Source of the DNA: a virus
Length of the DNA: 64,000 nt
Strand: one strand, 5' to 3'
Virus record (IMG/VR): IMGVR_UViG_3300008262_000149
Coordinates: 6,309-70,308 of that record
The notes under the pieces were generated by a model. The model was not told the origin of the DNA, searched no databases, and was given only the letters and a program-made list of their open reading frames with translations. Below are positions 12,459 through 59,060 of the stretch, in pieces. Position numbers and translations under genes: made by a program. The stretch's first letter is position 1. Every line of letters begins with the position of its first letter.

Positions 12459-12487
12459 TATATACATCAATTTGTTTTTAATGTACA
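12459..12487 (-). promoter_or_regulatory. early promoter (TGTACA-N17-TATATA) upstream of the tmRNA precursor
   Basis: Member of the repeated AACTGTGTACA-N17-TAnnnT family; predicted start about 12450. Confidence 0.45.
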
Positions 12488-12490
12488 CAG

Positions 12491-12928
12491 TTATTTGCAC
12501 CAAGATTGCTTTGCATCACCAAAATATTCACGAGCAAAGCCATTTGCAATCAGTTGAGCACGAAGACTCTTGCCATCAAGCATCATATCGCCAAGAATAC
12601 GGCCGCCATATTTGTCCCAATCGTACACGACATATTGGACTTTCTTTGCCTTTGCTACTAGATCCTTTGTAAAGGCGCTAGCCGCCTGTCCCTTTGCGTC
12701 TTCTGCTGGACATTGGGCACGATGGCCTTTTTCTGGAGTATCCACGCCATAGATGCGAACTGAAATCACAGGCTTAATTGGAGCAGGAACCCATGGCGCT
12801 TCAACCTGCACAGTGTCACCATCAGCAATCTTAATTACCTTGGCGTCATATGTAACACCAACTGGAGTCTTTTGTGCAGTAACTGGAACAGCTAGCGCAA
12901 AAAACGCCAGGGCAATAAACTTCTTCAT
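12491..12928 (-). CDS. secreted thermonuclease (staphylococcal nuclease-like)
   Basis: Signal peptide MKKFIALAFFALAVPVTA; motifs IADGDTVQV and VRIYGVDTPEKG; AAGGA ribosome-binding site before MKKF. Confidence 0.65.
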   Translation of the reverse strand: MKKFIALAFFALAVPVTAQKTPVGVTYDAKVIKIADGDTVQVEAPWVPAPIKPVISVRIYGVDTPEKGHRAQCPAEDAKGQAASAFTKDLVAKAKKVQYVVYDWDKYGGRILGDMMLDGKSLRAQLIANGFAREYFGDAKQSWCK

Positions 12929-12936
12929 GGATATCC

Positions 12937-13263
12937 TTAATTGCAGCGAGTCTGCCAGTAGATATAACGCTCGCCACGATACCATTCAGTTACCTGTTCA
13001 CGAACGCAATAACGGCGATCGTAGCGGTTATCAGGCGGATAGTAGCGATTGTCGTATTCTCGATCATGACGATCTTCAGAAGCAATGGCACCTACAACGA
13101 TTCCACCGATAATTGCTCCACAGAGCCATCCACAACCACCACGGTCTCTACGACGTTCATGCTGACTATAGTCTCTGTCTCTACTGCGATCGCGATGATC
13201 AGCAAGAGCTGGAGTGGTGATTAGCATGCTAGCTACGAGGGCTGATGCAATAAGCTTCTTCAT
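12937..13263 (-). CDS. secreted glycine-zipper protein (17 kDa surface antigen-like), RDR-rich
   Basis: Signal peptide MKKLIASALVASMLITTPALA; motif GGCGWLCGAIIGGIVVGAIA. Confidence 0.4.
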   Translation of the reverse strand: MKKLIASALVASMLITTPALADHRDRSRDRDYSQHERRRDRGGCGWLCGAIIGGIVVGAIASEDRHDREYDNRYYPPDNRYDRRYCVREQVTEWYRGERYIYWQTRCN

Positions 13264-13264
13264 A

Positions 13265-13447
13265 TTAGAACCTTTCATCAATTTCGGCAAACATCACGCG
13301 TTTTCGTGGATCACCTGGCGTGATACACCGGGTGAGTCTAAGAGCTTCATTATAATTCTTCGTATGAAACTTCACCGGAAAGAGAATCTCTTCATCCTCG
13401 GTTTCCAGAAGCATGCCTACGAAGTAAGTACCATTTTCTTCTTGCAT
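13265..13447 (-). CDS. hypothetical protein
   Basis: 60-aa ORF. Confidence 0.25.
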   Translation of the reverse strand: MQEENGTYFVGMLLETEDEEILFPVKFHTKNYNEALRLTRCITPGDPRKRVMFAEIDERF

Positions 13448-13451
13448 GCAA

Positions 13452-13817
13452 TTATTTATTCGCAGTAGATTTTACCTTTACATAACTAATCGTGTCGTAA
13501 CCCTTGTATTCTCCAGCCCATTGACTGCGAGGACGTTCTTTGAAACCAATCTTATCGAAATTATCTTCGAAAAACTTAGCAGCGATCCCACTAAGCTCAT
13601 ATTCGTTTTCAGCCTGTAGCTGAAATGAGTCTGAGCGCCATTCCTTATTAAAGGTGACCTTATAAGTCTTAAGCCTCTTCGCTCTCTTGGCCTCGTTCTT
13701 GATCATCTCCTTGGTACTGCCCTTACGGTTATTCAGGATCTGATTGAACCGATGTTCAGCAACAGATGCAAGAGGTCCCCAGGATTCTGGGGACCGGTTC
13801 TTAATATCAAACAGCAT
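13452..13817 (-). CDS. hypothetical protein
   Basis: GGAG ribosome-binding site; start ATG overlaps the C-terminal codons of the upstream DUF932 gene. Confidence 0.4.
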   Translation of the reverse strand: MLFDIKNRSPESWGPLASVAEHRFNQILNNRKGSTKEMIKNEAKRAKRLKTYKVTFNKEWRSDSFQLQAENEYELSGIAAKFFEDNFDKIGFKERPRSQWAGEYKGYDTISYVKVKSTANK

Positions 13818-14754
13818 CGGCAAACTCCACTGCAGTCTCGAGAGCCTTAGTCTTGAGGTTCTTGTTAGCACCGTACCAAGCCGAGGCAAGACGCGTATCA
13901 GCGCTGCGACCGATCATGTGGTCGGTCATGAAGGTAACGGCGTTGAACGCCTGCCACCAGCTGCCTTCAGCAAACTCAGCGCCGGGCTGCTGATCCATGA
14001 TCTCGAGAGCAATTTCAGCGTTCTTGCTGAGTTCCTTCTTAGAACCAGAAACCGGGAAAATGCGAGTGAAGTAGTCAACAATCGACTCGTCGTTATAACG
14101 CTTTGAACCGAGGTAAGCAGCCATTTCCTTGTACTTGGCAAGCTTTTCCTTGGCAACACCAAGAGTTTCCTTGACCAGCTCAGCATCAAACTCACGACGG
14201 TGGCTGACCTTGACGATCTTGCTCGACTGAGTATTTAGCGACAGAGTCAGAGTGTTGTTGCAAACCACACGGATCGGGGTGAAGCGAACGTCGATCGACC
14301 AGCCATACTTGTGCGGATTCGTGAAGAGGAGGTAGGATTCAACGGTATCACCATTGAACAGCTCGAAGCTTTCCTTGACCTTCGCAAGGGCCCAGACAAG
14401 CTGGCCGTCGCGAAGCGAACCAGCAGTGTGCATTTCCATTTCACCGGCAGCAACGAAGTCGTTGAAGAACTCGAAAGCCTTTTCATTCTGGTTCGGAATC
14501 CAGTCATTCGTGATCACGTCGAGAACCTTATTGTCGACGTCACGAACCAGAGCCGAGCGGCCGATGTCGACCTGCTTACCACCGATTTCGGCAAAGGCAG
14601 GAATCGGAGTGACGGTCCAGTCAAGACCAGCAGCCTTGAGCATCTGATCCGGAGTCACATCGGCCGGAACCTGAGTGCCGAGGCCATGCCACGGGGTTTC
14701 ACCAGCATAAGCCATCGAAGCCTTGCCATCGAGGAATTCAATCATATGTGCCAT
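13807..14754 (-). CDS. DUF932 (phage/plasmid-related TIGR03299-like) protein
   Basis: N-terminus MAHMIEF...MAYAGETPWHGLG is typical of the DUF932 family. Confidence 0.5.
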   Translation of the reverse strand: MAHMIEFLDGKASMAYAGETPWHGLGTQVPADVTPDQMLKAAGLDWTVTPIPAFAEIGGKQVDIGRSALVRDVDNKVLDVITNDWIPNQNEKAFEFFNDFVAAGEMEMHTAGSLRDGQLVWALAKVKESFELFNGDTVESYLLFTNPHKYGWSIDVRFTPIRVVCNNTLTLSLNTQSSKIVKVSHRREFDAELVKETLGVAKEKLAKYKEMAAYLGSKRYNDESIVDYFTRIFPVSGSKKELSKNAEIALEIMDQQPGAEFAEGSWWQAFNAVTFMTDHMIGRSADTRLASAWYGANKNLKTKALETAVEFADAV

Positions 14755-14779
14755 AATATAGTTTCCTTTTCAATTCAGA

Positions 14780-14947
14780 TTACATGGATTCAGCAAGATC
14801 TGCCGCCGAGTAACGACGGTCAAAATCGATTAGCCAGTCGCGTTCAGCAGACGGAGGACCAAAGAGGATCGCACCGGTTTCAGACTGATCGATGTTGTTA
14901 GCAGCCAGCCAGTTGCGATATTCGTTGAGAAGTTCGTTGGTAGTCAT
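14780..14947 (-). CDS. small hypothetical protein
   Basis: MTTNELLNEYRNWLAANNIDQ...; GGAGATTATCATG ribosome-binding site; early promoter upstream. Confidence 0.3.
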   Translation of the reverse strand: MTTNELLNEYRNWLAANNIDQSETGAILFGPPSAERDWLIDFDRRYSAADLAESM

Positions 14948-14971
14948 GATAATCTCCGTTTTGATATTCTC

Positions 14972-15000
14972 AGTATAGTCTATTTTCGAAATAATGTACA
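14972..15000 (-). promoter_or_regulatory. early promoter TGTACA-N17-TATACT
   Basis: repeated promoter family. Confidence 0.45.
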
Positions 15001-15008
15001 CAACTTTT

Positions 15009-15110
15009 TTAAAAAAATTATGCGGGGAGAGTTTGCTGAACTTCCCACATGGTGCAGATGAGGAACACAAAGGCACCGAAAGCGAGCGAGTAAAGAATGT
15101 CAGTCCGAGT
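15009..15110 (-). CDS. small membrane peptide
   Basis: About 33 aa, MTRTDILYSLAFGAFVFLICTMWEVQQTLPA; shares its 31-nt leader (GTGAATAATAACGAATGGAGATGAACATGAC) with the gene at 58399..58698. Confidence 0.3.
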
Positions 15111-15136
15111 CATGTTCATCTCCATTCGTTATTATT

Positions 15137-15165
15137 CACTCTACGATATTTTCGAAATTATGTAC
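15137..15165 (-). promoter_or_regulatory. early promoter TGTACA-N17-TAGAGT
   Basis: repeated promoter family. Confidence 0.45.
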
Positions 15166-15364
15166 ACAGTTATTTTCAAAAAAACGCATTAATATGCATT
15201 TAGGCCATGAGAAAATTCAAAACCGATCTCTTCAAGAGCTTCTGGACTTGCTGTCTCAAAGAACTCTTCAGGATAACCGATGCAGTCCTCGGCTGGTGCA
15301 GCGAATACCCTGTGTCCGATCTGGACAATCACAAGACCGCTAGCAACGCTGTACTCTACGTGGT

Positions 15365-15568
15365 TCATGCCTTCTCCATATATTCAACCATGCGTTCGAT
15401 GATCTTCTCAAAGTCATCATCCGGATGCAATGCATCATCTACACAAATATCATTGTAGAGGTCGGTCATAGTATCACGGATCTCTACGCCATAAGCGCCA
15501 CAGATGGCTTCATAGATATAGGCGTGAGGATCATCCTGAGCAAGGATATATTCATACAACCGAGTCAT
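15365..15568 (-). CDS. hypothetical acidic protein
   Basis: 67 aa. Confidence 0.3.
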   Translation of the reverse strand: MTRLYEYILAQDDPHAYIYEAICGAYGVEIRDTMTDLYNDICVDDALHPDDDFEKIIERMVEYMEKA

Positions 15569-15750
15569 TACACTTCCTCCACAAAACCATGCGCCGCAGC
15601 ATGATATTCCACGAGCTCTCGAGCTTCAGGAACACGAGAAATAATATCCTCCATCATACTCTCGAGGTATCCGAGTTTAAACGCAATATTAGCCGATTCA
15701 GAAGCTCCAAGTTCCTTAGCAATGTGATCGATAAGCTTTGCAATATACAT
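15568..15750 (-). CDS. hypothetical protein
   Basis: 60 aa; ATGA overlap with the downstream gene. Confidence 0.3.
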   Translation of the reverse strand: MYIAKLIDHIAKELGASESANIAFKLGYLESMMEDIISRVPEARELVEYHAAAHGFVEEV

Positions 15751-15780
15751 TCTTACATCTCCATCATAAGTTCATGAGCA

Positions 15781-16044
15781 TCATGCTCGGCAGCAGCATT
15801 GTAGTTGGTGCAGTCGCGGAAGATCACCGGTGATCTTCATCATCTCAAGCGCAGTTTCGGCGAGACGAACAATCGAATGCTTCGTCGGCGACTTTTCGTT
15901 GTAGTACTCGATGTAGATCCAGTCGATCAGGTCACCGGCGGCATTCCAGTCCTTCATGATCTTGACGACCTCACCGCGGATGGTACCAGCGGCCGATTCG
16001 TAGCGGACGCGATCGCCGATGAGGATGGTCTTAGGAGCAGTCAT
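15781..16044 (-). CDS. hypothetical protein
   Basis: Start MTAPKTILIGDRVRYE with AAGGA ribosome-binding site; early promoter upstream. Confidence 0.35.
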   Translation of the reverse strand: MTAPKTILIGDRVRYESAAGTIRGEVVKIMKDWNAAGDLIDWIYIEYYNEKSPTKHSIVRLAETALEMMKITGDLPRLHQLQCCCRA

Positions 16045-16075
16045 GATCAATTCCTTTTTCACTGTTGATATAATC

Positions 16076-16104
16076 ATTCTACAGTATTTTGGATATTATG
16101 TACA
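16076..16104 (-). promoter_or_regulatory. early promoter TGTACA-N17-TAGAAT
   Basis: repeated promoter family. Confidence 0.45.
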
Positions 16105-16120
16105 CAGTTATTTTGAAAAA

Positions 16121-16306
16121 TTAGAGATAATTTTCGGTTTTAAATTGGAGGAGAATTTCGGGAGTGGTGAAAGTGATGGTGATAGTAGGAAGATTGTTGT
16201 TAGGATTGTTGGTATAGTTGATGTTGGTGATGTGGGGATAGTAAGGAGTGAGAGTGGTGAAAATGTTGTGGTTATAGTCGAAATCGAAGGTGATAGTGTT
16301 GGACAT
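16121..16306 (-). CDS. hypothetical protein
   Basis: Strong ribosome-binding site TAAGGAGAAAAAACATG. Confidence 0.4.
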   Translation of the reverse strand: MSNTITFDFDYNHNIFTTLTPYYPHITNINYTNNPNNNLPTITITFTTPEILLQFKTENYL

Positions 16307-16332
16307 GTTTTTTCTCCTTAGCTTACTTTACC

Positions 16333-16361
16333 ACCCTACATAGTTTTCAAAATTTTGTACA
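16333..16361 (-). promoter_or_regulatory. early promoter TGTACA-N17-TAGGGT
   Basis: repeated promoter family. Confidence 0.45.
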
Positions 16362-16362
16362 T

Positions 16363-16398
16363 AAAAAAACGCACTCCAGAAATCCAGAGTGCGTTTTA
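16363..16398. terminator. bidirectional intrinsic terminator
   Basis: AAAAAAACGCACTC-CAGAAATCCA-GAGTGCGTTTT hairpin with flanking A-run and T-run. Confidence 0.5.
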
Positions 16399-16419
16399 GT
16401 TTTCAATGTAAAGAATGAC

Positions 16420-16965
16420 TTAGTATGCTGTGTCGAAAAAGAACGTCTGGAACAATCTACCGTCTTCGAAAGTAGATCCAAAATAATCTACAGATGCGTG
16501 GAACAGATTGCCACGGTAGAGAATGATCCTGTTATAGACGTTGCCAATCCGATCTATCTCTTCCCACTTGGTATAGTCATATGCCTCGTAGTCTGAGTCT
16601 ACCTTTTCTCGGTTTCCTGTGGCCTTGTGACGATATAAGGCTGTACCACCACTTGCTGGTGCATTCGGCGTAAGATAGCATACACCAGCCCATGTATTGA
16701 AGCTATCAGCATGGATCCAGGTTCTATCCTGCGCCGTACACAACTGGAACGCACCGGTGTACCCAGACTCTTCATGCCAATTTGTCACTGGTCCTGCAGC
16801 TGCAACCAAATGACTAATGGCATTTTTGATAGAGTCGTTCAGCATCGGAGCCGTTCTTACACCAGGATAGTTTCCTTTGAAGTTAAAAGGAAGGTTCAAA
16901 GCCATGGCTCGAACGGCATCAGGATCGTCGTAGAAGTTTTCGGCAATGACTAGATTGAGTTTCAT
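16420..16965 (-). CDS. 2OG-Fe(II) oxygenase-like protein
   Basis: HxD (TWIHAD) and distal His (NLFHAS) arrangement. Confidence 0.35.
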   Translation of the reverse strand: MKLNLVIAENFYDDPDAVRAMALNLPFNFKGNYPGVRTAPMLNDSIKNAISHLVAAAGPVTNWHEESGYTGAFQLCTAQDRTWIHADSFNTWAGVCYLTPNAPASGGTALYRHKATGNREKVDSDYEAYDYTKWEEIDRIGNVYNRIILYRGNLFHASVDYFGSTFEDGRLFQTFFFDTAY

Positions 16966-17708
16966 GCATACAACCTATGATACGATTTAACAAGGTCTGC
17001 AGCTTTTTCGATGTAGTTCGATGGCCGCTCGACAAAGACCTGAGCATCTATTTCATCGTCAACACCGATCATGATTACGATATCCTTGGCTGAGATACCA
17101 GTCATTTCCCAGAGCATATATGCGTACAGACTTGCCTGTAGGAAGTATCCTTCAATCCAATCCTTCCTCTTACGCTTGGTTGATGTCTTATAGTCAATAA
17201 TCGAAAGCCGTCCATCGTAGTTAGCAATCAAATCGCATGTACCAGCAATCTTAAGATGATGACTAAAGAGTGTGCATTCAGTAGCACGGATCATATCAAC
17301 CTTTTCGTCAAGGACCATTTTGAGTTGACGAAACATAAACATGTTGTACGGCATAGAGGTATCAACCTCCTCGCCAAGAATGTACTTTTCACACATTGTA
17401 TGGATGTTAGTACCGCGTGAAGCAGCTCGAGCCGAAACTCGAGCTGCTTCTTCCTCCCCAACTCTTTTTTTCCATTCGTTGAGTGCAGTCTTATCAGTCA
17501 TCTTACCAAGTACGGTAGTTACTGATGGATAGCGTTCTCCTGTCGGAGTCTCATAAAGCCGAGTTTCACCATCAATACGATTAAGTTGAGCGAACTCAAT
17601 CAGATCGTGTTGAAAGTCTTTACGGTTGTAGTCCAAGCTTCTGGCGAGCAATGATGTATTCCTTACAATTATCACCATGCCAGCGTTTGAAATTGCTGGC
17701 ATCGACAT
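16962..17708 (-). CDS. PD-(D/E)xK nuclease (Cas4/RecB-like exonuclease fold)
   Basis: ETPTGERYPSVTTVL ... SIIDYKTS motif; exact start uncertain because it overlaps the homing endonuclease gene. Confidence 0.45.
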   Translation of the reverse strand: MSMPAISNAGMVIIVRNTSLLARSLDYNRKDFQHDLIEFAQLNRIDGETRLYETPTGERYPSVTTVLGKMTDKTALNEWKKRVGEEEAARVSARAASRGTNIHTMCEKYILGEEVDTSMPYNMFMFRQLKMVLDEKVDMIRATECTLFSHHLKIAGTCDLIANYDGRLSIIDYKTSTKRKRKDWIEGYFLQASLYAYMLWEMTGISAKDIVIMIGVDDEIDAQVFVERPSNYIEKAADLVKSYHRLYA

Positions 17709-18225: not shown

Positions 18226-18242
18226 TTTTTCCTCCTACATTC

Positions 18243-18250
18243 TATTTATA
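18243..18250 (-). promoter_or_regulatory. T4-type late promoter TATAAATA
   Basis: Plus-strand tatttata, so TATAAATA on the minus strand, upstream of the homing endonuclease gene. Confidence 0.4.
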
Positions 18251-19337: not shown

Positions 19338-19339
19338 TA

Positions 19340-21147: not shown

Positions 21148-22202
21148 TCTTGGTTGAGTCGGCCATTAGGCTTGCTTTCCGCGGTCTTTATATTTGACAT
21201 AAACGACCTCAGACCAACCTTGCCGGCTGACAAGAGTGCCGTCAGGGATTCTCCGGGCTTTCGTAGAGTCTTCGATGTACTGGATTCTACATCCCATCCA
21301 GTAAGAGTCGTTCCCTTGACTTGAATACCCGCAGGTCCCACTGCTAGGTACTGAGTCAGCTTGCGATACTTGGTGTTGTACACCCATAGCTGTTGACATC
21401 CAATAATTTCGGCCGGATGAACCGACACAATCTTCAGAGAAGGTTCTTCCTTCTGGAACTTCAGGTTCTTCACCAGATCGACGGCCGGCTTGACCTTTTT
21501 CTCTCGTGGCTTACGGACCTTTACCGCCTTCTTGTTATTTATATATCGATCGATCAAAAGTACAAACTCTTCCCAGTACTTTTTGAGGCGAGCACGAGAC
21601 TTCTTCATGGCAGGAGTATCATACTCATCCGGCTCATGATCATTCGCATGTTTCGAGTAGTACTCACGGATTGCGTTTGCTGCCTGAGGTGACACTTCTT
21701 TGGCAACAAGCCAATCATACACATTGAAGTCAGGAACGGTGTCAATGGCTTCTTCGCAGGCAGTAATCAGATTGTGAATCTTAGACTGTACACGATCCTG
21801 GATGCTCACAGCCGGCTTTGGCGATTCGTCTACTTCCTCACGAATCGCCGATGCCAACCGGACCAGCTCCTTGACGCTATTGTCAAAGTAGTCGAGATTC
21901 TTCTGCGGCAGCTCGTTTCCGTTCATGATGATACGAGCAACATTGCCAAGAGTCTTTGAGATCTTGTACTTTGGAAGCCGACGCAGAGCAGACACATCAC
22001 TCTTGGTATACGTCTTCTTGACATACGTGAAGAACCAGTCTCGCGACTGGTCATCATCACTCATATAGTTGTACCAGTTCAGAGCATCACCAAGGTTGGT
22101 TACCTGAATCGGTTCAGGACCGTAAGCCCTTTCATCCAAGGTCTTGATAGCCGACCGAGACATCTGCTTCGGCTTCGGCTTGGTCTTAATCTTGATAGCC
22201 AT
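21120..22202 (-). CDS. hypothetical protein
   Basis: 360 aa, no motif recognised. Confidence 0.4.
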   Translation of the reverse strand: MAIKIKTKPKPKQMSRSAIKTLDERAYGPEPIQVTNLGDALNWYNYMSDDDQSRDWFFTYVKKTYTKSDVSALRRLPKYKISKTLGNVARIIMNGNELPQKNLDYFDNSVKELVRLASAIREEVDESPKPAVSIQDRVQSKIHNLITACEEAIDTVPDFNVYDWLVAKEVSPQAANAIREYYSKHANDHEPDEYDTPAMKKSRARLKKYWEEFVLLIDRYINNKKAVKVRKPREKKVKPAVDLVKNLKFQKEEPSLKIVSVHPAEIIGCQQLWVYNTKYRKLTQYLAVGPAGIQVKGTTLTGWDVESSTSKTLRKPGESLTALLSAGKVGLRSFMSNIKTAESKPNGRLNQECILLRVVK

Positions 22203-22325
22203 CGGTATCCACCTTCTTTACACGACGAAACGATCCCTTGCCTTTCTTGGCAGGGATCGCTTTAGGCTTATTCACCCGGCCGACTGCCCGAGCAATAGGA
22301 TTTCGAGATTTGAGTTTCTGTTTCA
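22202..22325 (-). CDS. small basic hypothetical protein
   Basis: About 41 aa; directly downstream of an early promoter. Confidence 0.2.
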
Positions 22326-22333
22326 TAATATTC

Positions 22334-22362
22334 AGTATATTACGTAACATAAAAAATGTACA
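22334..22362 (-). promoter_or_regulatory. early promoter TGTACA-N17-TATACT
   Basis: repeated promoter family. Confidence 0.45.
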
Positions 22363-33959: not shown

Positions 33960-34268
33960 TCACTTCGCCTCCAGTGCTGCGAGGGCTTGAAGGCATTCGT
34001 TCGATAAGTTGTTTGCGGTTTCCCAATGTCGCGACGGTAACAGGCCCATCTCAACCACGTTCTCCCAGGCCTGCTGCGATCTACGCAAAGCCTCCTTCGC
34101 CGTCCTGATGCTTTCGACACTGGGCCGGGTGTTCCATACGGCGATTGCTTCGGCTTCGGTGTCCGCGCTTGGCCAAGAGCATTGGCTGCAAGATACCCGC
34201 CAGCCAGTAGGAACGCGGTGAGCAATTCCTCCCCCATTACAAAACGGACACGGCTTCAATTCAGTCAT
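33960..34268 (-). CDS. Lar-family restriction alleviation protein (zinc ribbon)
   Basis: MTELKPCPFCNGGG...VSCSQC matches the N-terminus of Lar_restr_allev proteins; local GC content is much higher than the surroundings. Confidence 0.55.
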   Translation of the reverse strand: MTELKPCPFCNGGGIAHRVPTGWRVSCSQCSWPSADTEAEAIAVWNTRPSVESIRTAKEALRRSQQAWENVVEMGLLPSRHWETANNLSNECLQALAALEAK

Positions 34269-34297
34269 GGCGCTTCAGTTTCCTTCATCATATATTC

Positions 34298-34326
34298 TTT
34301 ATATCAAAAAGAGGAAAAAATGTACA
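34298..34326 (-). promoter_or_regulatory. early promoter TGTACA-N17-TATAAA
   Basis: repeated promoter family; drives the Lar-like gene. Confidence 0.45.
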
Positions 34327-35242: not shown

Positions 35243-36203
35243 CGATAATTTCCTTCACCTGTTCCTGTGTATATCCAGCAAGGACCATATCATTGATGTC
35301 CTTCTGTTCAATGGATGTTGGCCAGATACACACACGATATCCAGCATCAATAGCCTTTTCGATTCGTTTGACTATGTCTTTATTTCTGGGTTCGTTATCG
35401 TATACTACAATAAATCGCTCTTTTTGTACATCTAAAAATTGTAGTGGTGTGATAAGATCACCACCTGCCGATGCAATCCCATTTGGCAAAAAGAGTGAGT
35501 CAATCGGCCCTTCCACCACATATATATCATGGGACGGATCCATTGTATCGAGGCCAAAGATCTTCGGCTTCTCATCATCAAGAATGATAGTGATGTACCT
35601 GACCCCTGTTTTCTTGAACGAACGGCCTTGAAACCCAAAGAGCTTCTTGTTCTCATCAAGAAACGGAATGATCAACCGCGGTTCGTCATTCTTCAGAGAT
35701 TCCTCATCAAACTTATCAGGAAGCATGGTGTTCACCCACTCCTTAAAGTTTCTTACAAGAAATAGTTTGTGATGTGCCTCTGAAGGAATTAACCGGCGAG
35801 ATACGTATTGTTTGACTGGATGATCAGGTTTGAGTTGAGAGACCTTCTTCAAATCCTTCAGGCCGGTTGTCTTCACAAAGACCGGCGGCTTCATCTTCTC
35901 GACGAACTCTTGCGTCTCGTTCCTATGACCCTGCTCGAGCATCCGTTCCTTGAGATACTCAATATACAGAGTCGGGTCAAGAGTCTTAATGAACCATGGA
36001 AGACCCATTGATGCACTACAGTTATGACAAAAGAACTTTAACGCCCCTTTGCGCATATAGATATAACCACGAGTTTTACGAGGATCTTTTTGTGAGTCAC
36101 CACAAATTGGGCAACGGAACTTATAAGTGTTTGCGTTAACTCTTGCGAATCTCTCGAGTCTGGATGAAAGAAGATTAACGTATTTGTGTTCTAACCAAAG
36201 CAT
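35178..36203 (-). CDS. gp61: DNA primase gp61
   Basis: Zinc ribbon CPICGDSQKD...CHNC and TOPRIM YVVEGPIDSLFL. Confidence 0.85.
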   Translation of the reverse strand: MLWLEHKYVNLLSSRLERFARVNANTYKFRCPICGDSQKDPRKTRGYIYMRKGALKFFCHNCSASMGLPWFIKTLDPTLYIEYLKERMLEQGHRNETQEFVEKMKPPVFVKTTGLKDLKKVSQLKPDHPVKQYVSRRLIPSEAHHKLFLVRNFKEWVNTMLPDKFDEESLKNDEPRLIIPFLDENKKLFGFQGRSFKKTGVRYITIILDDEKPKIFGLDTMDPSHDIYVVEGPIDSLFLPNGIASAGGDLITPLQFLDVQKERFIVVYDNEPRNKDIVKRIEKAIDAGYRVCIWPTSIEQKDINDMVLAGYTQEQVKEIIDECTYTGPTAKLHFALWRKDR

Positions 36204-36232: not shown

Positions 36233-36261
36233 ATTATACACAGTCTACGAAATAAGTACAC
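36233..36261 (-). promoter_or_regulatory. promoter with perfect -10 TATAAT upstream of gene 61
   Basis: GTGTAC-N17-TATAAT. Confidence 0.45.
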
Positions 36262-47046: not shown

Positions 47047-47648
47047 TTTACCGTCTTTATCGATCCATCAGGGTTTACAAAATATGCTTCAAACTTAATG
47101 TTTGGATATTCTTTTTGCAGCGAAAGAAATGCATGAAGATTGCTAGGAGCATCATCAAACAATCTCAGCTTAACGTAGTTCTTTGTATTTATATACTTGC
47201 GGAAGATGATCTTCTTAGCTTCTGCCGAAGAGTCGATCTTCAAGTTACCAGCGCGCTCAACGTGAATCTGATCAATCGGAAGACCATGATCACGAAACGT
47301 CTGAAGGAAGAGATCCTTGTTATCAAAGTCAGCCCGTGCAGTGCAGATGATTACCCGGCTGTGAGGATTCTTCTTCGAGTTGGCAAAGATCGCTTTCGCC
47401 TTTGCAACCATACGAGAGATTGGAGTCGAGGTCTTGCGAAATACCTCTGCGCTCGCAAACTCTCCGAAGTCGTAGGTCTCGCCTTCCTTACGCTTGTAGG
47501 TGTTAAACTCCTGGTTATCCAACATTCGAACAACCTTGCCATCCTTTACGACAGCAACCTTTGCCTTCGTATGGAAGAGTGTCTCATCGATATCGAATAT
47601 CGTGAGCGTACCAGAACCAACAAACTCTCTAAACCTTTTCTTGATCAT
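47043..47648 (-). CDS. HAD-family phosphatase (polynucleotide 3'-phosphatase-like)
   Basis: DxDxT motif IFDIDETLFH; likely leaderless mRNA from the adjacent promoter. Confidence 0.55.
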   Translation of the reverse strand: MIKKRFREFVGSGTLTIFDIDETLFHTKAKVAVVKDGKVVRMLDNQEFNTYKRKEGETYDFGEFASAEVFRKTSTPISRMVAKAKAIFANSKKNPHSRVIICTARADFDNKDLFLQTFRDHGLPIDQIHVERAGNLKIDSSAEAKKIIFRKYINTKNYVKLRLFDDAPSNLHAFLSLQKEYPNIKFEAYFVNPDGSIKTVK

Positions 47649-47653: not shown

Positions 47654-47682
47654 ACCCTACAACGTTTTTGAAAAAATGTACA
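47654..47682 (-). promoter_or_regulatory. early promoter TGTACA-N17-TAGGGT, 5 nt before the ATG (leaderless mRNA predicted)
   Basis: repeated promoter family. Confidence 0.45.
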
Positions 47683-50405: not shown

Positions 50406-50455
50406 TCGTTATATTTTCAATATAACTCATTTTCACAATAAAGTAAACAGAAAAA

Positions 50456-51622: not shown

Positions 51623-51651
51623 ACCCTACTATCATTTCGAATTAATGTACA
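51623..51651 (-). promoter_or_regulatory. early promoter TGTACA-N17-TAGGGT
   Basis: repeated promoter family. Confidence 0.45.
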
Positions 51652-51793
51652 CTGAAAAGTAGCGCGATCACGCATAAAAATATGAATCCAATCATAGCAA
51701 ACCGGAAAATATACTTGGCGGACTTGAACCCGATCCAAAGAAAGAGGCCCAAGACCGCCAAGAGCGGCACTGATAAAAGAAGGAGAAGAAGAG

Positions 51794-52213
51794 TTAACAC
51801 CGCCTCTTACCAGTTGCCGGGTCGGCAGCATCAGACTTGGAAAGGACAACAAGTCCGCCCTTGTTATAGGCTTGGCCGACAATATAATTGCTACTCACCT
51901 CGAGCTTTGCACGCTCGTAGGCAAGATCCTTTGTGAAGTGCGGGCCAATCTCATTCTGAGACTGATACTTCTGGCGATGATCTGAGACCTTATAGTCTGG
52001 CATCTGAGTACCACGAAGCTTGGGCTTGTAGTTACCCTTGCGATACTGAATATACTCATCAAAGGTCTTGGCCTTGATACCAAGTCGCTTGCACTGTCGC
52101 TTATGGTCAAGCCAGTCCATAGCCATCTTGGTATGCGCTGCAGTCGTAACCTTTTTGCCACGCTTGCCAGTACGAGTAGTAGTGTAAGCAGGACCTAAAA
52201 GATGCATTGTCAT
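51794..52213 (-). CDS. hypothetical basic protein
   Basis: 139 aa. Confidence 0.35.
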   Translation of the reverse strand: MTMHLLGPAYTTTRTGKRGKKVTTAAHTKMAMDWLDHKRQCKRLGIKAKTFDEYIQYRKGNYKPKLRGTQMPDYKVSDHRQKYQSQNEIGPHFTKDLAYERAKLEVSSNYIVGQAYNKGGLVVLSKSDAADPATGKRRC

Positions 52214-52232: not shown

Positions 52233-52261
52233 GCTATACACCGTCATTCAATTAATGTACA
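52233..52261 (-). promoter_or_regulatory. early promoter TGTACA-N17-TATAGC
   Basis: repeated promoter family. Confidence 0.35.
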
Positions 52262-54119: not shown

Positions 54120-54145
54120 ATGTTTTTCCCATTCCGTATAATCTA

Positions 54146-54174
54146 TATCTACACCGGAATGGGAAAAATGTACA
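54146..54174 (-). promoter_or_regulatory. early promoter TGTACA-N17-TAGATA
   Basis: repeated promoter family; flanked by a direct repeat GGAATGGGAAAAA. Confidence 0.35.
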
Positions 54175-54407
54175 CAAAAAAATTACTGTTGAAGCAACAT
54201 TTCGATCAATGGCTTCAGTTCATCAGCGTATTGTTGGCCAACGCTTGTGCTCAGGATTAGAACAGCAGCGCCGATTAGAGCAACCTTGATTGCTATAGAC
54301 TTGTATTTTGACATTTCTTCTTACCTGCCTTGGATTTGGGTTTACAAACGTCAGGGTGAAACATAGTGTCTCTCAGGTGTAATATTTATAAAACCATAAA
54401 TAGGAGC

Positions 54408-55439
54408 ATGACGACATGCATACTTATTCCTGCCCACAACGAGGAAGTTGTGTTGCAGAGCACGCTCAATTCTCTCTATGAAGTGGGATTCGATCCCACC
54501 ATTATTTATTGTGTCGACGACTTCTCTACAGACAAAACCTACGATATTTGTATTGAAAATAAAATAAATGTCTGTAGGACTCCAACCGGACTAGGAAAGG
54601 CCGGCGCACAGCAGTACGCCATTCAGCATTTCGAGCTGTGTGATAAATACAAATATGTAATCATGATAGATGCTGACACAAAAATAGATCAAAACTTTAA
54701 AGATGTTTTAACGTTGAATCTGCTACACTACAATGACGTAGATCTTTTTATTGGACAGGTTACGAGTTCTAAAGCAAATCATATCTACTCTGCGTATCGA
54801 ACTGTAGAATACACGTTCTCGCACGAGGTGGTTAAAAAGGGACAGGCAGCTTTCGGAGTTGTTTATGTTGCGCCTGGGTGCGTTTCAATATATTCAACCG
54901 ACATATTAAGACATTTGGAATTTGATTCTTCGGTGCTTACAGAAGATATGGATCTCACGTTACAGGTTCATAAGTTAGGCGGAAAGATCAAATACCTACA
55001 TGATGTGAAGGTGATTACGCAGGATCCGAGTACGTTCAAAGACTACCATAAACAGATGATGAGATGGTACGGTGGATTCTGGCAGGTCATTATGAAATAC
55101 GCCAACAGAAATAACAGGTTTAAGGGCGTTGATTTTTATCTGCTTTATTTGATATTAGATTCTTTGGTACTGAATAGACTCATCATGCTTTCTGCGAGCT
55201 TCATAGTACTTGGTCTAAAATCTATCTTATTGGTCTTGTTTATTGATATGTGCATATTTGCTCTCGCTGCAGTATATGCTTCATACAAAAATGATCGCAA
55301 TGATTTAATATATAAAGTTCCAGTTCTATATCTTTTGTCGTTTTTTAATACGTATGCTTACATAAAAAGTTTCTTTGACGTTATAGTGCTTCGAAAGAAA
55401 AAGAATAACTGGAACAAAGTTAAAAGATACGGAGAATGA
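54408..55439 (+). CDS. processive family-2 glycosyltransferase (PgaC/NodC/HAS-like) with C-terminal transmembrane helices
   Basis: CILIPAHNEE, DAD (IMIDADT) and Q-x-x-RW (KQMMRW) motifs; hydrophobic C-terminus. Confidence 0.6.
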   Translation: MTTCILIPAHNEEVVLQSTLNSLYEVGFDPTIIYCVDDFSTDKTYDICIENKINVCRTPTGLGKAGAQQYAIQHFELCDKYKYVIMIDADTKIDQNFKDVLTLNLLHYNDVDLFIGQVTSSKANHIYSAYRTVEYTFSHEVVKKGQAAFGVVYVAPGCVSIYSTDILRHLEFDSSVLTEDMDLTLQVHKLGGKIKYLHDVKVITQDPSTFKDYHKQMMRWYGGFWQVIMKYANRNNRFKGVDFYLLYLILDSLVLNRLIMLSASFIVLGLKSILLVLFIDMCIFALAAVYASYKNDRNDLIYKVPVLYLLSFFNTYAYIKSFFDVIVLRKKKNNWNKVKRYGE

Positions 55440-55440
55440 A

Positions 55441-55869
55441 ATGAAAAAGTATATACTGGGAAGCTTACTTGCTCTCGTCGTTCCTGCCACTGCACATGCT
55501 GAAGACAAAAACTTTCCAGGAAGCGCATGGGTAAACGTAACAGGTCCACATGTTTCTGGAGAAGAAAAAGGAAACTGGGTTCTATCCGGAAGAATAGAAC
55601 AAGACGCCGTTCTTACCGAGGTTGCAGACTGGAAACTCGCCGCAACAACCGGTATTGGATTTAGCACCGATACAAAAGGTTTTGAATGGAACAACAAAAT
55701 CGTTCCATCGGTAGGAGTGAAAGCAACTCGAGAAGCTTTTGGCGGTGTGATGAACGTGACCGTTCAGTATGCCTACGAGAGACGCTTTGGCAAACTATAC
55801 AAAACCGACGATCGCTCAGATGGCGGCGTGCAGGTTGTGGTTAACTACTGGACAGGTTGGGGAAGATGA
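55441..55869 (+). CDS. secreted beta-rich protein (signal peptide)
   Basis: Signal peptide MKKYILGSLLALVVPATAHA. Confidence 0.4.
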   Translation: MKKYILGSLLALVVPATAHAEDKNFPGSAWVNVTGPHVSGEEKGNWVLSGRIEQDAVLTEVADWKLAATTGIGFSTDTKGFEWNNKIVPSVGVKATREAFGGVMNVTVQYAYERRFGKLYKTDDRSDGGVQVVVNYWTGWGR

Positions 55870-56270
55870 TTTACAATCCATCAAATGGAGTTATTGCATT
55901 CATCATGAGATGGCCCATACTCGGCGGTTTGATCGCCGGAATCGGAGCTATCAATACAGAAGGATGGCTAGCAGCCGTGCTTGCCTTTGTGGCAGGAAGC
56001 GTCGCCGGTGCCTTCGGTCTCAGCAAACTTTTCAAAGATCAAATATGTGATTGCGAAAAGGATGGTTATTTTAAGCCTGAAGGTTCTAAGCTAGAATGGA
56101 TCGTTGAATACAATCCAGAGTCAGGTGCAGAAAGACCGTGGGACGTATATACGATGTTTGCAGGTATTGAAGCTACAAAGCAACACTATGCGTCGTATGC
56201 TACAGAAGAGAATGCTCTCAAGAAGATCGAGGTTCTAAAGGAAATGGCTTCCAAGGTTACAAAAAAGTAA
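55857..56270 (+). CDS. membrane protein
   Basis: Two hydrophobic segments. Confidence 0.35.
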   Translation: MGKMIYNPSNGVIAFIMRWPILGGLIAGIGAINTEGWLAAVLAFVAGSVAGAFGLSKLFKDQICDCEKDGYFKPEGSKLEWIVEYNPESGAERPWDVYTMFAGIEATKQHYASYATEENALKKIEVLKEMASKVTKK

Positions 56271-56742
56271 CCTTGGAAAACCCTTCAGTTTCAGTTGGTT
56301 CTTCGTAAGAAGCAATCATACGGTCAATGGCATCCTGTGGAATAGTTTTACCCAAACGTTCTGAGCGTTCAGACAGTCGCCGTTCTAATTCCTCAGGTTC
56401 AGGTGTAGGGAACACTACACACTCAAACTCGTAACCATACTTCTTGAGCTTATCAATGAACTGCTTGCGCGACTTTGCCGACATATTAGTACGATCAACA
56501 TAAAGATCATATCCGTTCTGAGCTGCAATCAGCATACGAGCTACCATAGCCATGTCTGCAAAGCGGATCGTCTCCTTAAAGATCTGATCATAGGTAAAGC
56601 CGTAGTCATCGGCCAAACCATTGATGATGTTATCAGTAGAGACGATCCATGCACCCTTAGGCCGGTTTTCGATAAGCCACGTGGACTTACCTGAACCAGG
56701 AACACCAACGAGAATTGTACACTTAGGCATATTATACTCCAA
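56257..56742 (-). CDS. pnk: polynucleotide 5'-kinase (Pnk kinase domain only)
   Basis: P-loop ILVGVPGSGKSTW and layout like the T4 PseT N-terminal domain; no phosphatase domain. Confidence 0.6.
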   Translation of the reverse strand: MEYNMPKCTILVGVPGSGKSTWLIENRPKGAWIVSTDNIINGLADDYGFTYDQIFKETIRFADMAMVARMLIAAQNGYDLYVDRTNMSAKSRKQFIDKLKKYGYEFECVVFPTPEPEELERRLSERSERLGKTIPQDAIDRMIASYEEPTETEGFSKVTFL

Positions 56743-56882
56743 GAGACGACTTATTGTGCCATTGCTTCATGAAAGCACGATATTTTGTCATGTTTGGTTT
56801 TTGACTACGATTCCCACAAATCCATCTCCAACCAAACAAAGCGGTTTGTACACAAACATAATAGTAATGCCTGCGGAACCAT

Positions 56883-58097
56883 TTAGTCATTGTAAGTTAC
56901 TCCAGGAAACCAAGCATCACGAATCGCTTCGTACTTTACAGTCTTGGTCAAGTTGTTACGAATAACATTCTTAACTGCTTCGACAATCTTGTGATCGTCA
57001 GTCTCATCCCAGCACTTAAAAATCGTAGCACGAGTGTACTGATTGAACGCAGGTGCGATTTCGAGAGCAAAGGTCTTACGATCAACATTCTCTTCACGGA
57101 TATGCTCGAGCATATTGCTAATCAGTTGAGCCTGACCATACACTTCGATATTGAACAAGTGCTCAAAACGACCAAGCTCAAAACGATCCTCAGCAGGTAG
57201 ATGAGCCTTAATGTCATCCAGTGCTTCATCCAGAATCAGTTCGACAATGTTGCGATCCTGTAGGATAGCTTCCTTCGCCCTGTGAATCTGCAGGTACCAA
57301 TGGCACTTCAGCTTAAGCATGTGCCCATCATAAAAACGAACTACGAAACCTTCGAGGTCTTCCAGATCACGAACGTACTCGACGAAAGCCTTCATATCAG
57401 TCTGTGGTTCGAAGGTACGAACAACTGGAATACCCGCAAGTTCAGCAAATGAAGAAATATAGAAATAATCCATATATTCACCAGTCTTCATGTTTCGCAT
57501 TGCAGTCAAGATAAGAGTATCTTCCTTGTAATCCAAAACAATGCGCTGCTTGCGTGAACACCATTCAAAGATCGGAGTAAGACCTAACAAGATAGCATTG
57601 TTCGCCAATGCTTCGTATTGGGGATTGTTCTTAACGAACTTTTCAACAGGCTTTGCCACATCAGTAGCGCCCATCTTCGTACCCCAGATCATCTGATCGA
57701 TCACAACGAATGGCGCAATCATCGAGCCATCGAGCTTTTCGAGGATAGCATGTGGACGCGACAGATCAACAACATGGTCCTGAGTCTCTTCACGCTCATT
57801 CACGTTGAAGAACTTGTGGAAAGGACGACGAAGGATCTCACCAGTCTCAGTGTCGAAGATGATACCGCGGCACTCACGACGAAGGCGAGCGTGAAGGTTT
57901 TCTACTTCATAATGGTCGTGGTTTGCACGTAGATCATCAGACGCAAGCACATCAGGAAACGTATCAGCCATCATCACGTTGTAGTTGATGACGGTGTAGC
58001 CTTCCTTCTCGGCAACCACGAACTCGTCGCGGCCTTCGATAGCAGGCAGCACATCAGAGATGTTGGTGATATATGGAAATTCGTAGTTCATAATCAA
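56883..58097 (-). CDS. rnlA: RNA ligase 1 (RnlA-like)
   Basis: Motif I EKLDGSM (T4 KEDGSL), FEW, EGFVV. Confidence 0.7.
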   Translation of the reverse strand: MIMNYEFPYITNISDVLPAIEGRDEFVVAEKEGYTVINYNVMMADTFPDVLASDDLRANHDHYEVENLHARLRRECRGIIFDTETGEILRRPFHKFFNVNEREETQDHVVDLSRPHAILEKLDGSMIAPFVVIDQMIWGTKMGATDVAKPVEKFVKNNPQYEALANNAILLGLTPIFEWCSRKQRIVLDYKEDTLILTAMRNMKTGEYMDYFYISSFAELAGIPVVRTFEPQTDMKAFVEYVRDLEDLEGFVVRFYDGHMLKLKCHWYLQIHRAKEAILQDRNIVELILDEALDDIKAHLPAEDRFELGRFEHLFNIEVYGQAQLISNMLEHIREENVDRKTFALEIAPAFNQYTRATIFKCWDETDDHKIVEAVKNVIRNNLTKTVKYEAIRDAWFPGVTYND

Positions 58098-58099
58098 GT

Positions 58100-58186
58100 C
58101 CTAAAAAAGTCAGATGGCGAGGATCGATCCACACTGCAGTCACTAGCAATTTACGAAAGATCACTCGTGATCCACACCATCTGATA
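58100..58186 (-). promoter_or_regulatory. long hairpin plus U-tract immediately upstream of the rnlA start (possible attenuator/terminator)
   Basis: Inverted repeat CAGATGG...CCATCTG followed by TTTTTT on the minus strand, 8 nt before the ATG. Confidence 0.3.
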
Positions 58187-58191
58187 GTTTA

Positions 58192-58220
58192 GTTTTATAC
58201 TATATTCGATAATATGTACA
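58192..58220 (-). promoter_or_regulatory. early-promoter-like element TGTACA-N17-TAAAAC (weak -10)
   Basis: repeated promoter family. Confidence 0.3.
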
Positions 58221-58227
58221 CAGTTAT

Positions 58228-58401
58228 TTTAGTAGAAGTAAAACTCTCTGAGTTCGTCTGTCATTTCGACATAGACAGGAATCGTTCGGTATCCACGATT
58301 TTCCCAGTAATCAGTATTGCCTTCAGTCTCAAAGGTCTCACCAAAAAACTTGAACCCGAACTTACCGTCGCCAACGACAGCGTATGCAATCTGCTGCATT
58401 A
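58228..58401 (-). CDS. small hypothetical protein
   Basis: About 57 aa; coordinates worked out by hand. Confidence 0.25.
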
Positions 58402-58698
58402 CAAAACCTTTCCATCCAGAGTGAAGTATCCGCGACCGAGCTCGTCCTTTTCGAACACCAAAATTCCGTCGTTCTTCAGGATCTGAAGAGGAGCTTCACC
58501 GTGAGGGTTGTAGGCTCCACCAAGGCGGCTAAAATACTCTTCAACCGAGTAGTGCTTGATCAGGGTCTTAAGGAACTTAGCCTTGGTAACAGGACCGCGG
58601 TGCTTGAACCGAGCAACGAACTTACGTTCACCGGCTTCGGTGTTATAGTGAAGGTAGCCACCGTGGTATTCGAAGTTGGTCTTAGTAAAAGCGGTCAT
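58399..58698 (-). CDS. hypothetical protein
   Basis: Start MTAFTKT with GGAG-N6-ATG; shares its leader with 15009..15110. Confidence 0.4.
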   Translation of the reverse strand: MTAFTKTNFEYHGGYLHYNTEAGERKFVARFKHRGPVTKAKFLKTLIKHYSVEEYFSRLGGAYNPHGEAPLQILKNDGILVFEKDELGRGYFTLDGKVL

Positions 58699-58722
58699 GT
58701 TCATCTCCATTCGTTATTATTC

Positions 58723-58751
58723 ACCCTACATCACTTTTCAAAATATGTACA
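58723..58751 (-). promoter_or_regulatory. early promoter TGTACA-N17-TAGGGT
   Basis: repeated promoter family. Confidence 0.45.
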
Positions 58752-58779
58752 CAGTTATTTTTTAAAAAGATGAAAAAAA

Positions 58780-59007
58780 TTAGAGTTTGGAGAGATATCG
58801 AGACATCCAGTTAGTGAAGGAGCGGCGGATTTTTCCGTTGCGGATGACATCGTCGATTCCGTAGCCGACGATATGGTTGTTGTAGAAGATAGGACCGTGG
58901 TTACGAGTAGGGGTTTGGAGAATGTAATCGGCCATGGTTTGGATATCGGGGAATTCGGGCGAGTGGTTGTTTTGGCCGAGGTTATCGAAATATTGGATGG
59001 TGTACAT
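58780..59007 (-). CDS. hypothetical protein
   Basis: GAGGAGAAAACACATG ribosome-binding site. Confidence 0.4.
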   Translation of the reverse strand: MYTIQYFDNLGQNNHSPEFPDIQTMADYILQTPTRNHGPIFYNNHIVGYGIDDVIRNGKIRRSFTNWMSRYLSKL

Positions 59008-59031
59008 GTGTTTTCTCCTCAATAGAAAACC

Positions 59032-59060
59032 AACCTACACCTTTTTCGAAATAATGTACA
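59032..59060 (-). promoter_or_regulatory. early promoter TGTACA-N17-TAGGTT
   Basis: repeated promoter family. Confidence 0.4.

Follow-up and report, generated by a model that had tools for sequence, protein, structure and literature searches.

The early promoters of phage T4 combine an UP element, a -35 hexamer, a TGn motif and a -10 hexamer with additional conserved positions (PMC2988021), and conform to the consensus TTTACW-N17-TAYWAT (PMC4122927). T4-like phages also carry PeSL (promoter-early stem-loop) cassettes (Arbiol et al., 2010, PMC2839356; Comeau et al., 2014, PMC4122927), which are defined by a stem-loop, an AT-rich region, sigma70-like -35 and -10 hexamers, a Shine-Dalgarno (SD) sequence and a start codon, and whose -35 consensus is specific to the lineage; these cassettes accompany indels in hyperplastic regions (PMC4122927). 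T4 middle promoters rely instead on the MotA box, TGCTTtA (PMC9004378), centred at -30 (PMC2988021), and in the aquatic T4-like myophage Melnitz and the pelagimyophages a two-piece transfer-messenger RNA (tmRNA) lies behind an early promoter (PMC9004378). Here we describe a family of elements built on the hexamer TGTACA in a 64,000-nucleotide stretch of viral DNA (IMG/VR record IMGVR_UViG_3300008262_000149, positions 6,309 to 70,308; hereafter the window), and compare it with these systems. Quite probably the elements are promoters of the pre-late ('early') type in an uncultured myovirus of the T4 superfamily, and a subset of them would give rise to leaderless mRNAs.

We assign the window to a novel, uncultured member of the T4 superfamily on three grounds. 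Matches to PHROG and Pfam families include UvsX, a gp41-type DnaB helicase, RnlA, NrdA, a gp59 helicase loader, a gp61-type primase and a gp48-type baseplate protein; queries of 8 kb and 1.8 kb matched none of the 50,697 deposited phage records at the nucleotide level; and the closest protein relative of its UvsX, at 65%, is that of Stenotrophomonas phage DLP6. The guanine-plus-cytosine content is ~44%, and from 8.5 kb onward the minus strand holds nearly all genes. For comparison we used 80 IMG/VR loci around uvsX relatives of 68-96% identity, labelled L001 and so on, with the window as W.

The pattern TGTACA-N17-TAnnnT occurs 12 times in the window, always on the minus strand, against 0.43 +/- 0.67 expected from shuffles. 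A position weight matrix (PWM) built from 16 sites returns 18 minus-strand matches above 8 bits and one marginal match on the plus strand, and finds 0-1 matches in mononucleotide shuffles. Reading every TGTACA in context alongside the PWM scan likewise gives 18 promoter sites, variants included, all co-oriented with the genes (Table 1; sites are named by their higher coordinate). The cores of 17 of these are wholly non-coding, although a crude gene map leaves just 10.7% of the window outside genes (binomial p ~5e-16); the only strong site within a coding region, 10566, sits ~230 nt ahead of the next gene (9422-10303), which occupies the gp32 position. Among the 80 related loci, the pattern is found 80 times on the uvsX strand, which carries most genes there, and 3 times on the opposite strand. 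Chance or AT-rich composition as the source of the sites is ruled out by the shuffles, the strand bias and the intergenic statistics. The window contains 41 copies of TGTACA in total, and the 24 that remain outside promoter sites are near the composition estimate of ~19. A further fit to the pattern at 35430, weak (8.7 bits) and within the primase gene, is probably due to chance. A scan of IMG/VR for TGTACA-N17-TAGGGTGAA returned 14 contigs with one match each, about the chance level by rough estimate, and was uninformative; none of them has both of the matching sites of the window, whose genome does not seem to be in the collection scanned.

These counts bear out the minus-strand motif family that a first-pass annotation of this DNA had proposed; the motif is not comparably frequent in coding DNA or in the opposite orientation, either of which that annotation had named as counting against its proposal. 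Thirteen of the 15 coordinates it listed are exact, but 15165 moves to 15166, and the entry at 36261 is TGTACT-N16-TATAAT at 36260-36233, not TGTACA-N17; sites 10566, 50447 and 62468 are additions to its list. Its spacing of exactly 17 nt holds at 16 of the 18 sites and fails at 36260 (N16) and at 58220, where a poor TAAAAC stands at N17 and TATAAA at N15. Its description of the copies as near-identical was overstated: the full AAAATAACTGTGTACA... cassette is common to only ~6 sites.

Table 1. Promoter sites of the window and the hairpins, leaders, RNAs and peptide associated with them.
Feature	Coordinates	Strand	Context
Promoter core TGTACA-N17-TATTGT with AAATAAACTG upstream box	10538..10566	-	Inside gp59-like helicase-loader gene
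Two-piece (permuted) tmRNA, tag ANDNDVAFALAA	12203..12449 (within 12157-12485)	-	RF04321 95.2 bits, RF01849 60.2 bits
Promoter core TGTACA-N17-TATATA	12459..12487	-	Begins 4 nt past upstream gene's stop; predicted to drive permuted tmRNA
Promoter core TGTACA-N17-TATACT	14972..15000	-	24-nt leader, GGAG SD, ATG 14947, 55-aa ORFan
31-nt identical leader GTGAATAATAACGAATGGAGATGAACATGAC, copy 1	15109..15139	-	-10 end, GAATAATAAC, GGAG SD, ATGAC; before ~32-35-aa hydrophobic peptide (15018-15125)
Promoter core AAAATAACTG-TGTACA-N17-TAGAGT	15138..15166	-	Weak hairpin and T7 run upstream
Promoter core AAAATAACTG-TGTACA-N17-TAGAAT	16076..16104	-	Ahead of 87-aa ORFan, ATG 16044
Promoter core TGTACA-N17-TAGGGT	16333..16361	-	Ahead of 61-aa ORFan, ATG 16306
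Intrinsic-terminator hairpin (14 bp) and T7 run	16366..16397	-	Abuts 16361 promoter; dG -19.5; PeSL-type stem-loop arrangement
46-aa very basic peptide (MKQKLKSRNPIARAVGRVNKPKAIPAKKGKGSFRRVKKVDTDGYQD)	22186-22326	-	7 nt after -10 of 22362 promoter
Promoter core TGTACA-N17-TATACT	22334..22362	-	Begins 4 nt past upstream stop; ATG 22326, 7 nt after -10
Promoter core TGTACA-N17-TATAAA	34298..34326	-	Ahead of Lar-like restriction-alleviation gene, ATG 34268
Variant TGTACT-N16-TATAAT	36233..36260	-	Ahead of DNA primase gene, ATG 36203
Promoter core TGTACA-N17-TAGGGT	47654..47682	-	Fills 34-nt gap from stop 47683 to ATG 47648; 201-aa HAD/PNK-like protein
T4-type variant GTTTACT-N17-TATATT	50419..50447	-	PWM 20.9 bits; ahead of 177-aa beta-solenoid protein
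Promoter core TGTACA-N17-TAGGGT, gaatc, ATG 51617	51623..51651	-	55-aa protein; leaderless candidate
Promoter core TGTACA-N17-TATAGC	52233..52261	-	SD leader, ATG 52213, 139-aa protein
Promoter core TGTACA-N17-TAGATA	54146..54174	-	Hairpin and T7 run upstream; ahead of 78-aa ORF
Conserved structured RNA, ~100 nt	58089..58196	-	13-bp outer helix, invariant core CGAGTGrTCTTTCGTAwATTG; between 58220 promoter and rnlA
Promoter core AAAATAACTG-TGTACA, degenerate -10	58192..58220	-	Predicted to drive structured RNA leader, then rnlA
31-nt identical leader, copy 2	58694..58724	-	Overlaps end of 58751 promoter core
Promoter core AAAATAACTG-TGTACA-N17-TAGGGT	58723..58751	-	Ahead of 103-aa protein
Promoter core TGTACA-N17-TAGGTT	59032..59060	-	Ahead of MYTIQYF... 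gene, ATG 59007
Terminator hairpin GGGGCGGCTTTCGGGCCGTCCC and T7 run	59062..59090	-	Abuts 59060 promoter; dG -21.8; PeSL-type stem-loop
Promoter core TGTACA-N17-TATACT	62440..62468	-	Abuts upstream stop; SD leader, then uvsX, ATG 62420

The conserved sequence extends well beyond the two hexamers. In 49 copies from the close clade the consensus reads aaaaTaa..gTGTACAtttTaTc.aAa.t.t.gTA...TGaa, with the block AAAATAA kept at about -46 to -40, and a run of at least five T is present at 10 of the 18 window sites, compared with 3.3% of control positions. The -10 conforms to TAnnnT at 13 of the 18. Immediately upstream of it, window sites have a conserved G-13 within a TG at -14/-13, close relatives carry TGG at -15 to -13, and distant relatives carry TGnTATAAT. 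The A/T-rich upstream block, the 17-bp spacing and the conservation of positions outside the hexamers recall the T4 early promoters, as does a -35 hexamer that is one substitution away (TTTACA to TGTACA); the variant at 50447 has GTTTACT. The cassettes here differ from those of T4 in having -10 hexamers that match TATAAT poorly (TAGGGT, TAGAGT) and in the position of the TG, and their host is not E. coli.

The case that TGTACA occupies the place of a -35 hexamer comes from relatives, in which other hexamers replace it at orthologous promoters with the spacing unchanged. At the uvsX promoter this interchange is observed directly: the hexamer is TGTACA in the lineage of the window, TTGACA in L011-L014, TTTACA in L015 and L016, and TGTACT in L017, while N17 and TATACT or TATAAT are kept throughout. 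Similarly, the promoter of the 55-aa gene reads TGTACA-N17-TAGGGT-gaatc-ATG in the window and L085, and TTGACA-N17-TAGACT-[ag]aatc-ATG in L084 and L088-90. Close relatives use the same cassette as the window, and in more distant ones a perfect TATAAT follows TGTACA-N17; the commonest hexamers lying 17 nt upstream of a gene-strand TATAAT in the latter are TTGACA (43 cases), TTGACT (23), TGTACA (19) and TGTACT (15). Sister-lineage cassettes with TTGACA retain the T-run, the spacer, G-13 and the leader. A single substitution separates TGTACA from the T4 TTTACW, and two separate it from TTGACA. This pattern supports the view, also taken by the first-pass annotation, that TGTACA behaves as a sigma70-type -35 hexamer resembling TTGACA. 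A paper on genomic SELEX (systematic evolution of ligands by exponential enrichment) lists three promoters of E. coli prophages whose predicted -35 is TGTACA, a listing that weakly supports its tolerance by sigma70.

TGTACW and TTGACW are nearly exclusive within a lineage. In a neighbour-joining tree of UvsX, which as a single-gene tree is indicative only, the TGTACW lineages fall into at least five patches among TTGACW lineages, and the difference in promoter family holds even between relatives whose proteins are 85-90% identical. This distribution suggests that the -35 hexamer evolved in concert, through either adaptation to the host or gene conversion between cassettes. The TGTACA class is absent from ~41 kb around uvsX in DLP6 and in phage C48C1, the latter of which uses TTGACW and yielded nothing relevant in a literature search, and from the first 50 kb of HTVC008M, where the few matches to the pattern fall on both strands and several lie inside annotated genes.

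That the sites function as promoters is argued for by three observations: their intergenic placement in the orientation of the genes; the start of the Rfam tmRNA_permuted model at 12449, 10 nt past the -10 of site 12487; and a bimodal spacing between the -10 and the first ATG to open an open reading frame (ORF), with one mode at ~24 nt, where a GGAG SD intervenes, and the other at 5-7 nt, where none does. We infer that RNA polymerase carrying the primary, sigma70-family sigma factor of the host is the most likely reader of the sites, and place the start sites by the same reasoning. TGTACA would then be the -35, the AAAATAA block, often following a T-run, would act as an UP-like element, and a spacer fixed at 17 bp would lead to a TAnnnT -10 tolerant of a G-rich middle (TAGGGT, TAGAGT). 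The repeated unit is a cassette of promoter, leader, SD and start codon, at which related phages have gained, lost or exchanged gene modules, as PeSL elements are described to do.

Leaderless mRNAs are familiar from the lambda cI gene transcribed from PRM and are abundant in Caulobacter, Mycobacterium and Deinococcus. The first-pass annotation had predicted such transcripts at two sites whose -10 ends 5 nt ahead of an ATG, and this geometry is exact: the -10 hexamers end at 47654 and 51623 and the ATGs at 47648 and 51617 follow 5 nt later, each being the first start codon of its ORF. A third candidate is site 22362, where the arrangement is TATACT-gaatatt-ATG with the ATG at 22326 (d = 7, where d is the distance in nt from the -10 to the ATG). 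Among 90 dereplicated TGTACW promoters from the window and its relatives, 19 have an ORF-opening ATG at d = 5-7, as against 3.4% of random positions and 3.0% of positions after a TAnnnT without a -35 (p ~2e-10), a count weakened by its inclusion of orthologous, non-independent sites. Thirteen of the 19 have d = 6, at which the ATG begins on the canonical +1. Once cases with a later ATG behind an SD are dropped, the leaderless type still comprises at least nine gene families, and the start codon in this class is always AUG.

The arrangement is also conserved at individual genes. Upstream of the 201-aa gene, L003 has TAGAGT-aaact-ATG, with differences in the first 14 codons that are nearly all synonymous, and L041 has TATAAT-aacaat-ATG; in L053 a short SD leader is found instead. 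Seven orthologs of the 55-aa gene share MV[KR]TYL from residue 1, and six of them retain the promoter and a 5-6-nt gap, without an SD, across the swap between TGTACA and TTGACA. Protein conservation thus starts at codon 1 for both genes, which marks these AUGs as the true start codons. The 139-aa gene behind site 52261, which has an SD leader in the window, is leaderless in its L016 ortholog (TAGGTT-cttatt-ATG). The conserved geometry and N-termini support the reading of 47648 and 51617 as leaderless in arrangement, and 22326 is probably leaderless as well. At the first two starts, and probably at the third, the transcript would begin at or beside the AUG and be translated without an SD leader. 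The likeness to known leaderless mRNAs lies in a -10 that ends 5-7 nt before an AUG lacking an SD; the difference is that here the assignment comes from geometry and conservation alone. A differential RNA sequencing study of phage phiKZ did not find leaderless phage transcripts.

A rival explanation, which we consider unlikely, is that 47648 and 51617 are translated from longer read-through mRNA begun upstream, on which the G-rich '-10' (AGGGTG, AGGGTA) would be a weak SD, or by re-initiation following the preceding gene. By our own estimate from the sequence, AGGGUG pairs over ~5 bases with the anti-SD, 4 nt before the AUG; no terminator stands ahead of 47682 or 51651; the seventh ortholog of the 55-aa gene, in L087, is promoterless and lies directly behind another gene; and 71 of the 109 genes in the crude map use an SD. 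Against read-through translation, the gap is kept by orthologs whose -10 is incapable of anti-SD pairing (TATAAT-aacaat-ATG in L041, TAGACT-aaatc-ATG in L084 and TATAAT-atacct-ATG in L024), and the sharp peak at 6 nt coincides with an A at +1, not with the SD optimum. As a general explanation, the idea that the -10 is really an SD is therefore rejected, since orthologs with TATAAT or TAGACT keep the geometry. In the window itself, TAGGGT could nonetheless serve as a weak SD on read-through transcripts, a point that tells against a purely leaderless reading; the two are not exclusive, and both routes may coexist.

Several further arrangements were noted around these starts. A small hydrophobic ORF (51642-51800, minus strand) ends within the 51651 promoter, its stop being the TAA right after TGTACA; in sister lineages (L084) the stop is the TGA inside TTGACA, such that C-terminal coding and the -35 overlap and co-vary. 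At 34268-34298 (minus strand), an ATGATG 6 nt from the -10 of the 34326 promoter opens a mini-ORF of 8 codons that closes on a TGA shared in part with the Lar-like start codon (ATGA); it may represent a leaderless upstream ORF with coupling to the Lar-like gene, or simply SD context (AAGGAA). In C48C1 (L083, OQ984149.1; 13753-13791 and 16260-16297), the annotated DNA polymerase gene begins 7 nt after a perfect TTGACA-N17-TATAAT, and the ATG of a methyltransferase gene lies 6 nt after another such promoter. Judged from these sequences, the leaderless geometry may be wider in this phage group.

The genes downstream of the 18 sites are small ORFans, uvsX, the primase gene, rnlA, the Lar-like gene and the gene after gp59, together with two RNA genes; as in T4, then, the promoters stand ahead of prereplicative genes and ORFans, these types of gene belonging in T4 to the prereplicative class (PMC2988021). 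A separate class of 12 late-type promoters, defined in T4 by TATAAATA at -10 without a -35, is present at none of the 18 sites and stands ahead of other genes, the baseplate gene among them; its positions include 2152(+), 2155(-), 12150(-), 18250(-), 54390(-) and 59214(-), the first two flanking a divergent junction beside the baseplate gene. A late-promoter identity for the 18 sites is rejected on sequence and spacing. By analogy with T4, and by contrast with the TATAAATA class, transcription from the TGTACA promoters would be early. At 2152-2167 (+), and also at L003:2053, TATAAATA is followed by gaatc and then by the ATG of a gene at 2165-2605. T4 late-promoter numbering presumably puts the A of the 2165 ATG at the expected +1, and leaderless geometry may thus occur at a late promoter too.

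A number of features weigh against recognition by a host sigma factor unaided. The TG lies at -14/-13, unlike the extended -10 at -15/-14, and sigma contacts do not account for the conservation of the spacer (tttTaTc.aAa). The -35 matches the E. coli consensus at 4 of 6 positions, without T-34 and G-33, and TAGGGT matches the -10 consensus at 3 of 6; by that consensus these would be weak promoters. T-7 is absent at five sites (TATATA, TATAAA, TATAGC, TAGATA and TAAAAC), and the -10 of 58220 is degenerate, although its orthologous sites carry TAnnnT. Moreover, a true immediate-early class or a phage activator may lie outside the visible 64 kb. A host sigma factor whose region 4 differs in its preference may also be what reads the sites.

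Such features could be accommodated if the sites were activator-dependent, middle-type promoters of delayed-early or middle timing, at which a phage-encoded or injected factor reads TGTACA in the manner of sigma appropriation, an alternative to which we give little credence. Beyond the weak -10s, it is favoured by a box that departs from TTGACA at the two best-conserved positions, by conservation of the flanks (G-36, the spacer and G-13) beyond the needs of sigma70, and by the concerted switching of box type between lineages. No separate canonical sigma70 class is visible at 10-23 kb, where 33 matches compare with 25.3 +/- 4.7 in shuffled sequence. The targets include the gene after gp59, and T4 gene 32 has a MotA-dependent middle promoter; they also include uvsX, which in T4 likewise has a MotA-dependent promoter, PuvsX (PMC2988021). 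The sites thus resemble MotA/AsiA middle promoters in pairing a sigma70 -10 with a non-canonical upstream box and in serving uvsX-type genes. The MotA box lies 11-13 bp from the -10. Here, by contrast, a different hexamer sits exactly 17 bp from the -10, as a -35 does, and identity with the MotA box, TGCTTtA centred at -30, is rejected. Replacement of the box by canonical TTGACA or T4-type TTTACA at orthologous promoters, with all else unchanged, is most simply explained by the same sigma contact. Family scans of selected proteins from part of the window, which is itself a part of the genome, turned up no transcription factor, although no systematic search for AsiA, MotA or Alt was made, and Pfam found no transcription-related family among proteins encoded at ~40-54 kb. 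Finally, TGTACA is the only pre-late class seen, and an activator acting on it would need some other promoter for its own expression. Direct reading of the sites by the host sigma factor remains the better account of these data.

Both RNA genes lie behind promoters of this family. ARAGORN missed the permuted tmRNA, and a host search with its tag ANDNDVAFALAA, back-translated, found no match in 185,579 genomes. The position of this RNA directly downstream of a predicted early promoter is shared with Melnitz and the pelagimyophages; no glutamine riboswitch was reported here by Rfam, and HTVC008M differs in its lack of the TGTACA class over its first 50 kb. The second RNA, which matches no Rfam family, has copies at L001:4470-4592, L003:14394-14512, L004:10460-10578, L005:8738-8843, L008:3564-3665 and L014:4340-4446. 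Base pairing is preserved in 95.8% of cells, with double compensatory changes in 13 of 20 pairs, whereas slid controls are 34-50% paired. Depending on the phage, this RNA precedes rnlA, the MTMHLLGP gene or a 72-aa ORF, and its association with different downstream genes indicates that it forms an independent module. From its structure and placement it may be either a small RNA or a cis-regulatory leader.

The cassettes also mark the points at which related genomes diverge. Between the helicase gene and rnlA, W, L001, L002, L003, L005, L008 and L016 differ by whole gene modules, with a cassette at each boundary. A verbatim duplication of a leader in front of two unrelated small genes, noted in the first-pass annotation, is confirmed with respect both to the duplication and to the unrelated proteins, but it spans 31 nt (15139-15109 and 58724-58694), and the two copies diverge beyond the second codon. 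In relatives, the shared leader reads gaataataa..ggagat..ATG. These properties place the elements close to PeSLs, with which they have in common a repeated intergenic AT-rich region, a sigma70-like -35-N17--10 arrangement, an SD and a start codon, a lineage-specific -35, clustering between small ORFans, and indels or replacements between relatives that are bounded by cassettes. They differ in that TGTACA is not among the published -35 consensi (TTGACA, TTTACW, TTGYVH), in that the -10 is often G-rich, and in that some cassettes have no SD or leader. A strong stem-loop stands directly upstream of only 2 of the 18 sites (16361 and 59060), with weak hairpins at about three more (15166, 54174 and 36260); mean upstream folding energy equals that of controls, and the 'SL' half of the PeSL is mostly absent here, which counts against a full equation of the two.

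The palindromic symmetry of TGTACA, the module indels bounded by cassettes and the 31-nt leader shared by unrelated genes might suggest that the sites are chiefly intergenic cassettes that recombine or move, or else operators bound by a dimeric protein that recognises the palindrome, with only an incidental look of promoters, but this is highly improbable given that the sequences on either side of the box are strongly asymmetric and every copy is oriented along transcription, that the -10 retains TA...T at a constant N17 and in distant lineages is a perfect TATAAT, that the box is interchangeable with the non-palindromic TTGACA, that TGTACA outside promoters is about as frequent as composition predicts, and that the PeSL model itself includes a role in recombination, which does not conflict with promoter function.

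Both T4-type early promoters and PeSL cassettes are known precedents for this kind of element; of more interest is that the leaderless arrangement is conserved and that the -35 switches in concert. A joint scenario, which we put forward tentatively and regard as rather doubtful when taken as a whole, is that a large, uncultured aquatic T4-like clade undergoes concerted flips between TTGACW and TGTACW, driven by hosts whose primary sigma factor reads TGTACA or by an injected or early phage factor that retunes sigma region 4, and at the same time makes routine use of leaderless early mRNAs for immediate, SD-independent translation. No report of leaderless early genes in T4-like phages was found in the literature searched, in which the conserved geometry seen here at several early genes is thus unreported. 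The results extend to a new clade the PeSL idea of the regulatory cassette as a recombination joint, and provide a ready promoter model (UP-like block, TGTACA, N17, TAnnnT) for a large group of uncultured T4-like phages without a DNA match in the 50,697 deposited phage records, in whose sister lineages the family-wide switch between TTGACW and TGTACW constitutes a natural experiment in host switching or in the co-evolution of promoters and sigma factors.

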